The position numbers and the translations under genes are program-made. A model generated the notes under the pieces. It was not told the DNA's origin, searched no databases, and saw nothing but the letters and a program-made list of their open reading frames with translations. Source: Escherichia phage slur14. From it: a DNA stretch of 64,000 bases. Positions 28,859-30,498 of the stretch are shown here, in pieces (position 1 is the stretch's first letter; each line of letters opens with the position of its first letter). Location of the stretch: sequence record NC_028448.1, one strand, 5' to 3'.

Positions 28859-29638
28859 TTAATTAAAAATATATACTTCATCAGTTCCATTCTTTTCTTT
28901 GGAATGATATATGTTAAAGACGTATTTTTTATTAAGATGCTTAACATTATATTTTTTAGACCATTCTTTAAGAAGAGTGTTTTCCTTTCCGTGATGCTCT
29001 AAAACATTCGACAGCCCAAATTTTATTCCTCTGTCATTTAAAGAATCTAAAAGATTTAAAAGGTCTTTTTCTTCTTCTTCTGACCAAAATTTATTATAAT
29101 CAGCAACTGTTATGAGATACGGAGGATCTACATATACAAAATCGCCGTCTAGAATTTTGACATCTTTAAAATGCAATGAACTAAAGATTATTTTATCACA
29201 ATTTTGCTTAAAGTGATTAAAGCGTTTTTCACTATTTTTGTTTATAGTTCTTTTTCCAAACGGAGTAGTAAAATTTCCTTTATCGTTTATACGAATCATA
29301 TTACTAAATCCATGAAAATGAAGAACATAAAGTAAAAGAGGATCTCTAGTTTTATTATAATCTTCACGTAATTTCAAAAACTCTTCTTTTGATGTTTTTG
29401 ATAGTTTGTATTGCTTTATTACTTTTAAAACGTCATCCCATGATACATTAATAAGACGCTTATACATTTCAATAATTGGTTCTTGAATATCATTGGCCAA
29501 TACAGGACCATTGACGTTCAAAGACACTGATAAACCTCCACAAAATAAATCCACGAATCTGTCATATTTTGGAAAATGAGGCTTAAGTTCAGGTAATAAT
29601 GATTGTTTATTACCTGTATACGCGATAGCTCCTAGCAT
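28859..29638 (-). CDS. dam: DNA adenine methyltransferase Dam
   Basis: 259 aa; DPPY catalytic motif; N-terminal AdoMet-binding region. Confidence 0.9.
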
Positions 29639-30198
29639 TATATTCTCTCATTTATTGCAGCAAAAAACGAATTATATAATTCTTCATCATATGTATTTGA
29701 TAGTAATACTAACACGTTTTGTGATTTAGCATATTCATTAAACCTTGCTTGGATAGTTGGATTATCAGTAAATGATTCTCTTTTTGTCCATTTATTACGT
29801 GGATAATATCCGCATGGCAAAAAATCTAATATCATCAATGACACGGGGTTTTCAGTTTTTGTGTATTCTTTTAATTTCTCTTTATCTTCTAAATATATTC
29901 CAACCGAATCAATAGCTGTACCTCCACCAACTTGATGTTTAATTTCAATTATATGCTTTTTACCGTTGCGAGAAATAACAATATCAAATCTTCTAGTACG
30001 CTTCTTAGTTATAAAATTAGAGCAAAACAAATTATTTGATTTTTCAGTATCATCGGTTAAAACCATTTTTTCTTGATAACTAACTGAACAATCAGTGAAA
30101 TATTCTTTTACTTTATTAAGTATGAAATTTTCAACTACGGCAGATATTTTATATGAATCTCCGTTTAAAGCCATTTCATGCACAATTTTATTAATCAT
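29638..30198 (-). CDS. Hypothetical protein (186 aa) with a PD-(D/E)xK-like motif, translationally coupled to dam
   Basis: FDIVIS...IEIKH fits a D-x(n)-ExK nuclease core; its stop overlaps the dam ATG (TAATG). Confidence 0.5.
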
Positions 30199-30223
30199 TA
30201 TATCATCCTCAGCAATTTATTTT

Positions 30224-30252
30224 ATAATACCATAACAAGCTGAGAAAGTAAA
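30224..30252 (-). promoter_or_regulatory. Early promoter (TTTACT-N17-TATTAT)
   Basis: GTTTACTTTCTCAGCTTGTTATGGTATTAT on the minus strand. Confidence 0.55.
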
Positions 30253-30297
30253 CAAATTTATGAAATTTGTGATAAATATTAATTTAAAGGAGGACAT

Positions 30298-30498
30298 ATG
30301 GTACAAAAATTAATGGCACTTGTTAATGCCATAAAAGGTAATAAAAAACGTATAGCTTTTACTATTTCTGCTATGGTAGGAATTTTACTCTGGAACTTTA
30401 TTTTATCACCAATTGCAATTGCGCATGGTGTTAATATTCCAGTAGTTACTCTTGATACATTCGTAGATCTAGCATTTGCTTTAGTTGGGTTAATTTAA
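30298..30498 (+). CDS. Small two-TM membrane protein (66 aa), encoded on the opposite strand to the flanking genes
   Basis: AAGGAGG RBS 4 nt before the ATG; hydrophobic; stop codon overlaps the primase stop codon on the other strand. Confidence 0.4.
   Translation: MVQKLMALVNAIKGNKKRIAFTISAMVGILLWNFILSPIAIAHGVNIPVVTLDTFVDLAFALVGLI

Follow-up and report, generated by a model that had tools for sequence, protein, structure and literature searches.

We analysed a 64,000-nucleotide stretch of the genome of Escherichia phage slur14 (NC_028448.1), referred to below as the window, in which the region between gene 56 and the DNA primase gene 61 carries two features that, in the reading that we favour with moderate confidence, are independent of each other: (i) a pair of minus-strand genes, the open reading frame (ORF) ORF186 and the methyltransferase gene dam, which would form a cassette resembling a restriction-modification (R-M) system with a predicted GATC-directed, Dam-blocked nuclease, and (ii) a separate small plus-strand gene, ORF66 (dam.1). 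The window belongs to Tequatrovirus; over positions 29400-30800 its sequence shows 100% identity to that of phages slur03, slur08, Lutter and BYEP02, and about 500 T4-like records match it at 95-99% identity. The features of the pair are the following (aa, amino acids):

28859..29638, minus strand: dam, T2/T4-type GATC N6-adenine methyltransferase, the partner 3' of ORF186 (Pfam, identity to T2/T4)
29638..30198, minus strand: ORF186, PD-(D/E)XK type II restriction-endonuclease-like protein, 186 aa, phrog_8706 (ORF, AlphaFold2 model, conservation)
29636..29640, minus strand: TAATG, ORF186 stop codon over dam start codon, translational coupling (sequence)
30224..30252, minus strand: early promoter-like site of the sigma-70/T4-early type, GTTTAC-N17-TGgTATTAT (promoter scan, consensus match only)
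30210..30206, minus strand: GAGGA ribosome-binding site of ORF186

The linkage of ORF186 to dam is the strongest result of this study. The dam product is a D12-class methyltransferase (Pfam PF02086, E = 6.5e-51) with 100% identity to T2 Dam and 97.7% to T4 Dam; its match to the crystal structures of T4 Dam (1YFJ/1Q0S) has E = 1e-172. The stop codon of ORF186 (TAA, 29640-29638) and the start codon of dam (ATG, 29638-29636) share one base, and the tight coupling that a first-pass annotation of this DNA, made from the sequence alone, had proposed from this overlap was borne out here and in every homolog examined. Adjacency was read directly at eight loci and was taken from annotation tables for the remaining records. 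A T4-type Dam gene lies directly downstream of the ORF186 homolog in all eight orthologous pairs, and in seven of them the stop and start codons overlap or abut (TAATG, TAAATG, ATGA, and overlaps of 7, 20 and 35 nt). The pair occurs in three different genome contexts; the two genes adjoin each other in Tequatrovirus-like metagenomic contigs, lie between denB and ndd and distant from the primase gene in Klebsiella phage KPV15 (Jiaodavirus) and a related contig, and stand beside an rIIA-like gene in contig L013, and in the short contigs L012 and L014 the ORF186 homolog is likewise found directly upstream of the Dam gene. Nuclease/Dam identities drop in parallel (63/71, 57/72, 50/64, 44/63, 38/57 and 39/54%). 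Dam stands next to ORF186 in about 160 phage records and in all ORF186-bearing metagenomic contigs, and no ORF186 without Dam was found among these records and contigs. Solitary Dam genes are present in phages of the T4 type and, at greater distance, in 257 Straboviridae records; the dependence of ORF186 on Dam is one-way. The pattern is the one looked for in R-M systems, namely a nuclease that adjoins a methylase of defined specificity and is never solitary, and a methylase that sometimes is.

The presence of a 186-aa minus-strand ORF with a nuclease-like core at 29638..30198, as described in the first-pass annotation, was confirmed in both coordinates and motif (RRFD72IVI ... IIE85IK87, with a D-to-E spacing of 13 residues). 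An AlphaFold2 model built on eight homologs (predicted local distance difference test score 81.7, predicted template modelling score 0.79) comprises the elements H15-33, E38-48, E66-77, E80-88, H106-113 and E119-124 and thereby the alpha-beta-beta-beta-alpha-beta core of the PD-(D/E)XK fold, with the expected catalytic residues in place: E23 in helix 1, D72 in strand 2, E85 and K87 in strand 3, followed by a helix and a strand. These four residues are invariant in nine sequences with identities down to 29%, as are H88, Q89, G93-S98, P118, S120 and D125. The ratio of nonsynonymous to synonymous substitution rates (dN/dS) lies at 0.03-0.05 between alleles of Tequatrovirus and at 0.12-0.16 in comparison with orthologs of 57-63% identity, and ORF186 is under strong purifying selection. 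The invariant residues and the low dN/dS together argue that ORF186 is a functional protein and predict an active nuclease.

In structural comparison of the model the best matches were orthodox type IIP enzymes, the closest branch being MunI/EcoRI, and further matches comprised Can2-type nucleases and many more type IIP enzymes, namely BstEII, BsaWI, BsoBI, PfoI, NgoMIV, Bse634I, PspGI, AgeI, EcoRI, Cfr10I and SgrAI. A Foldseek search gave agreement at superfamily level only. The sole return of a BFVD structure search was an uncharacterised ortholog from phage MX01 (64% identical). Searches of the PDB sequences with ORF186 and with its family profile yielded nothing at E <= 10, a scan against NCBIfam yielded noise only, and a Pfam scan revealed no GIY-YIG or HNH domain, the fold being a single PD-(D/E)XK domain. 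As judged from the model, ORF186 appears to belong to the MunI/EcoRI structural branch, as a compact enzyme of one domain whose E...D...ExK site is intact. The recombination nucleases Mus81, Hjc, RecU and Bax1 were also among the fold matches, which would suit a housekeeping nuclease tied to Dam marks (MutH-like nicking, either for strand discrimination or to start recombination-dependent replication), a reading that could be widened to a catalytically silent, DNA-binding regulator of dam. Outside restriction, Dam and MutH are the classic pair acting at GATC, and T4 tolerates the loss of ORF186. We nevertheless consider such a role very unlikely, since ORF186 is accessory and missing from about 70% of the genus, and since its invariant catalytic residues speak against a silent regulator. 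No match of ORF186 to the MutH family was found in sequence or fold.

ORF186 is labelled "hypothetical protein" throughout the databases, and phrog_8706 carries no function. An exhaustive hidden Markov model search of 1.84 billion cluster representatives returned 12 proteins in all, the 185,579 bacterial and archaeal species genomes of GTDB yielded no relative, and IMG/VR and the JGI metagenomes contained two loci, both known already, and three loci of the same two types, respectively. The family is small and phage-restricted. Nothing on ORF186 or dam.1 was found in the literature searched by full text, reviews of restriction endonucleases included.

The top-scoring Pfam family for ORF186 was DpnII (PF04556; E = 0.0045, 16.8 bits), which was matched by four of the nine family members (best E = 8.3e-5), and the PADLOC model REase_II PDLC03548, a type II restriction endonuclease model of DpnII-like length, matched the same region (best E = 5.3e-6). 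For profile comparison a DpnII-family set of 16 real proteins was used, retrieved with a DpnII bait sequence that is 99% identical to a database protein with PF04556. The ORF186 family aligned to this set with E = 6.5e-4 and a probability of 27.6% in hhalign, and a local profile run gave a score of 34.9 (P = 1.9e-4, probability 47.5%), 7.6 standard deviations above 200 column shuffles (mean 14.7, standard deviation 2.7, maximum 24). The alignment covers DpnII positions ~124-226 alone and pairs E23 with E152, RRFD72 with KRFD201, and IIE85IK-HQVGGGT with LIE214VN-FYSGSGS. The restriction-enzyme-like core proposed at first pass is thus matched by a PD-(D/E)XK fold in structure prediction and by a sub-threshold similarity to DpnII in profile comparison, and the best-scoring family of ORF186, as far as its profile scores indicate, has the same specificity as the adjacent methylase.

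A DpnI-like nuclease with the opposite response to methylation would also account for an obligate pairing with Dam. In such a mark-and-destroy scheme phage Dam would bring the methylation of cytosine DNA to completion, Gm6ATC would be cut in that DNA, glucosyl-hydroxymethylcytosine (glucosyl-hmC) DNA would be immune, and the cleavage would add to the degradation of host or competitor DNA. Dam-methylated enteric host DNA would be an abundant substrate, and the discrimination is physically possible, as DpnI cuts methylated hmC DNA and spares glucosylated T4 DNA (PMC7653180 supplement). We give this scheme very little probability, because the sole family-level similarity of ORF186 is to DpnII, which methylation blocks, and because an own Dam would be needless in Dam+ hosts, so that a strict linkage is less expected.

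The distribution of the two genes was determined in an evenly spaced sample of the 502 matching Tequatrovirus records, sorted into classes by megablast. About 29% of the records carry both ORF186 and dam (T2 included), about 7% carry dam and a remnant of ORF186 (T4, T4T), and about 63% carry neither gene (T6, RB5, RB33, wV7, Shfl2). Record counts agree with the sample (180 with a Dam of at least 90% identity, 153 with ORF186), and ORF186 accompanies about 85% of the dam-carrying Tequatrovirus genomes. T6-type Tequatroviruses have about 42 bp in place of the 1,468-bp cassette, and Mosigvirus and Gaprivervirus, which also lack it, show the T6 arrangement 61 - ORF66 - 56. Within Tequatrovirus ORF186 and dam behave as one present/absent unit. 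The segments concerned are:

28819..30286: nuclease and dam cassette, 1,468 bp (alignment to T6)
29726..30273: segment missing from T4, 548 bp (comparison with T4)
29718-29725 and 30266-30273: 8-bp direct repeat TTTGTGAT, two copies flanking the T4 deletion

The 309-bp interval between dam and gene 61 in T4 contains the last 86 nt of ORF186, joined to the upstream region of ORF66 within the 8-bp repeat. The deletion removed most of ORF186 together with its early-type promoter and kept the box 5' of ORF66. In laboratory T2 (PV648363.1, locus L005, 1501-2046) one base is lost from a T-run of ORF186, the product being 181 aa long and ending in SFLLQ*, with a gap of 13 nt between its stop codon and the dam ATG; the T2 enzyme may be impaired. 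The same base is missing from the T4 remnant, and T4 therefore descends from a T2-like allele. From this comparison T4 dam looks like the leftover half of an R-M-like cassette, orphaned by the 548-bp deletion. The suggestion at first pass that ORF186 might be T4 gene 69 does not hold, as T4 lacks ORF186 owing to the deletion; the T4 annotation puts the name on the 56/segF/oriA side of dam, where it reportedly belongs according to a 1984 paper as well. No identity of ORF186 with a T4 core protein of known non-nuclease function was found.

Patchy presence and absence within one genus is also what would be expected of a free-standing PD-(D/E)XK homing endonuclease that cleaves cassette-less or dam-variant genomes close to this locus and spreads through recombinational repair, with dam co-converted and the link between the genes being positional. 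Such elements abound in T-even genomes, T4 segF (not in this window) lies two genes away and overlaps its upstream gene too, and a constant location by one gene fits homing endonucleases. We consider this explanation unlikely, because the pair is kept in three unrelated contexts and co-diverges to ~38/57% identity, the compact domain of ORF186 has no extra DNA-binding module and finds its best fold matches in orthodox type IIP enzymes, the best profile match is a family with the specificity of Dam, and the gene has an early promoter and is under strong selection, whereas homing endonuclease genes decay fast. The homing endonuclease, the methylation-dependent enzyme and the MutH-like or regulatory role were all ranked below the R-M-like reading.

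According to the R-M-like reading, ORF186 and dam would be transcribed early from their own promoter, which is also predicted in the annotations of phages fPS-65 and Lutter, with the nuclease gene first and dam translationally coupled to it. ORF186 would cut GATC sites without N6-methyladenine, and Dam would protect the GATC sites of the phage by methylation, including those in nascent hydroxymethyl-C DNA ahead of glucosylation. Enteric hosts are Dam+, and the likely targets would therefore be co-infecting phages or plasmids whose DNA is unmethylated. The cassette would represent an accessory, mobile unit of T-even-type phages, and T4 would have arisen from a T2-like carrier by deletion of the nuclease gene and promoter, with dam kept as an orphan. 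T4gt (hmC) DNA is fully cleaved by DpnI and resistant to DpnII, MboI and Sau3AI, and glucosylated T4 DNA is DpnI-resistant as well (PMC7653180 supplement); the results for T4gt DNA imply that T4 Dam does modify phage DNA.

Several points weigh against a GATC-specific R-M-like cassette. The DpnII match of ORF186 remains below the gathering cut-off (16.8 vs 23 bits), the hhalign probability for the similarity is just 28-48%, and the N-terminal 120-150 residues of DpnII have no counterpart in ORF186, which therefore lacks the full-length architecture. Because of the below-threshold scores and the absent N-terminal region ORF186 was not placed in the DpnII family, of which it would be at most a remote, truncated relative. 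BanI was a close second to DpnII in the Pfam scores, and the GATC specificity is therefore a pointer and not a result. The order of nuclease before methylase, one early promoter and no controller protein are unusual for type II systems. The loss of ORF186 in T4 and the C-terminal frameshift in T2 have no known phenotype, and the constant position by dam would also fit a homing endonuclease with dam as its target. The reading is weakest with regard to the substrate: hosts are Dam+ and the phage DNA carries glucosyl-hmC, so that few obvious substrates are left for a DpnII-like enzyme, and unmethylated GATC would be found mainly in other invaders. Avoidance of GATC was considered as a mark of the cassette and rejected. 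GATC is by a wide margin the most under-represented 4-bp palindrome in the window (75 observed vs 209.5 expected, 0.36), and depletion is equal or stronger in T6 and a Mosigvirus (20000-69999 in each), which lack the cassette and have observed/expected ratios of 0.35 and 0.19, respectively.

GATC is thus depleted with or without dam and ORF186, although hmC already blocks DpnII, MboI and Sau3AI. A more specific proposal, which we regard as tentative and rather unlikely, is restriction of phage by phage: the nuclease would tolerate hydroxymethyl-C or glucosyl-hmC and cut the unmethylated GATC sites of Dam-less T-even co-infectors, and Dam would mark self. The Dam-less relatives in question are about 63% of Tequatrovirus and all Mosigvirus. 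If true, T2/T4 Dam would gain the biological role that it has lacked for 50 years, the cassette would be a selfish marker-exclusion element, and a cause would be offered for the depletion of GATC in T-even genomes, which host type II enzymes are unable to cleave.

ORF66, the second feature, is located on the opposite strand between the cassette and the primase gene, as follows:

30298..30498, plus strand: ORF66 = dam.1, phrog_2024, 66 aa, two hydrophobic segments (ORF, profile, conservation)
30271-30278, plus strand: late-promoter-like box GATAAATA of ORF66 (sequence; marked as a promoter in phage Lutter)
30287-30293, plus strand: AAGGAGG ribosome-binding site of ORF66 (sequence)
30303..30332, minus strand: terminator-like hairpin ATGGCAtt/aaTGCCAT with T-run, 3' of gene 61 (terminator scan)
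30495..31523, minus strand: gene 61, DNA primase (ORF; context gene)

The properties that the first-pass annotation had listed for this ORF were confirmed. AAGGAGG stands 4 nt ahead of the ATG, the hydropathy profile reveals two hydrophobic segments (approximately residues 19-42 and 45-66), and the stop codon (TAA, 30496-30498) overlaps that of the primase gene (TAA, 30497-30495), both within the palindrome TTAA (30495-30498). In Mosigvirus the ends of gene 61 and dam.1 overlap by the same 4 nt. ORF66 matches phrog_2024 with E = 1.5e-31 (residues 2-66 against positions 1-65 of the 65-position profile). The copy in T4 is identical in 64 of 66 residues (locus L001, 3239-3439, corresponding to NC_000866.4, 17738-17938, plus strand); it is missing from the T4 RefSeq annotation (NC_000866) and is named dam.1 in T4T, and dam.1 and phrog_2024 are the same gene as ORF66, with no function assigned in the records. 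ORF66 was found by tblastn in 691 phage records (90-100% identity in Tequatrovirus, ~52-55% in Mosigvirus), the matches running into the end of the primase gene in every case, and further copies occur in T6, in the RB phages, in Gaprivervirus TH40 (44% identity) and in contigs that are more distantly related. It is convergent with gene 61 in T4, T4T, T6, Mosigvirus and Gaprivervirus, and the orthologs across Gaprivervirus and the distant contigs have K..KK...WN...P......G..LP.V in common. The dN/dS is 0.12-0.14, and orthologs are recognisable in three genera.

An opposite-strand gene at this position is hence not atypical for T4-like genomes, as had been suspected at first pass, nor is it part of the nuclease-dam unit, since it occurs in phages with neither dam nor ORF186. 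For the same reason a role as toxin or immunity partner of the module was rejected. On comparative grounds ORF66 is a real gene, older and conserved, and separate from the cassette. Of the overall first-pass reading, the pairing of a nuclease-like protein with Dam and the status of ORF66 as a gene have stood, and ORF66 as an atypical gene and the possible link to gene 69 have not. ATAAATA, the core of the T4 late promoter TATAAATA, is located 23-29 nt before the start codon in seven of eight orthologous loci across genera, and ORF66 lies on the late strand; from these features we infer that the product is probably a small inner-membrane protein expressed late. The designation "holin" given to a homolog in one UniRef entry is an automatic label and was not counted as evidence.

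The hairpin 3' of gene 61 has a predicted folding energy of -8.9 kcal/mol (z = -2.5) and is annotated as a terminator in fPS-65; no counterpart was found in Mosigvirus. Hairpin and T-run fall within codons 1-12 of dam.1, which is read from the opposite strand, this DNA thus having a double role. In L011 (3657-3938), a relative of this locus with 63% identity, an extra 93-aa ORF is found between dam.1 and the nuclease gene, which shows that the spacer of this divergent gene pair varies as well.

The order of genes on the minus (early) strand is 56, dam, ORF186, gene 61, 61.1, a 61.2 paralog, 61.2, sp, 61.4 and dmd, the first of these being located as follows:

28280-28798, minus strand: gene 56 (gene order and T4 annotation)

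On the downstream side of gene 56 two small ORFs (65 and 69 aa; 27880-28283, minus strand) replace the T4 homing endonuclease gene segF, which is another exchange of accessory genes inside the same early block. An extra 118-aa ORF between 61.1 and 61.2 (31692-32048, minus strand), missing from T4, is paralogous to gp61.2 over the C-terminal half of the latter (35% identity, E = 5e-9) and has the C-terminal end SIDDQIFNAFMNR in common with it.

T2/T4 Dam is among the best-studied DNA methyltransferases, and dam mutants are not known to show a growth defect. The present data indicate that in nature the T2/T4-type dam of Tequatrovirus is usually accompanied by a restriction-enzyme-like partner, and the pair moves as a unit. 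The reason for the presence of Dam in T-even phages thereby becomes testable with existing phages, namely carriers of the T2 type, T4, which has dam alone, and T6, which has neither gene. If the nuclease is active, an R-M system would be present in strictly virulent, hypermodified phages, with a very small restriction endonuclease scaffold of 186 aa. In addition, a conserved small gene, dam.1, is absent from the T4 reference annotation.

Among known systems, the T4 Seg and Mob endonucleases are likewise encoded by small accessory genes between conserved early genes, patchy in distribution and sometimes overlapping a neighbour. They differ from ORF186 in having extended DNA-binding modules together with GIY-YIG or HNH domains (to our knowledge in all known members), and in showing no co-inheritance with one partner across contexts. 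By structure the MunI/EcoRI branch is closest. The MunI chain (200 aa, single domain) is close in size to ORF186, and enzymes of this branch leave 4-nt 5' overhangs, as do DpnII/MboI at GATC. MunI differs in its recognition of CAATTG, in a partner methylase unrelated to Dam and in a sequence identity to ORF186 of 12%, ORF186 having no sequence-level match to any PDB chain. By function the closest systems are the DpnII/MboI-type GATC R-M systems, with the R.CviAI/M.CviAI pair of the lytic chlorovirus PBCV-1 as a virus-encoded GATC pair. The CviAI endonuclease is blocked by Gm6ATC and used on non-viral DNA in infection; its host is eukaryotic with unmethylated DNA, which makes the target obvious, whereas T-even phages have hypermodified DNA and infect Dam+ hosts. 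In the profile alignment ORF186 shows E, [KR]RFD, IE-x-[KN] and then a Gly-rich loop in the same order as DpnII/MboI, and the methylase paired with it is a relative of DpnM, a GATC adenine methylase of the D12 class. In contrast to DpnII/MboI, however, ORF186 has 186 aa instead of ~288 aa, without the N-terminal third, carries ExK in place of the ExN of DpnII, is encoded before its methylase in one early phage operon, and is confined to T4-like phages in the searches made.

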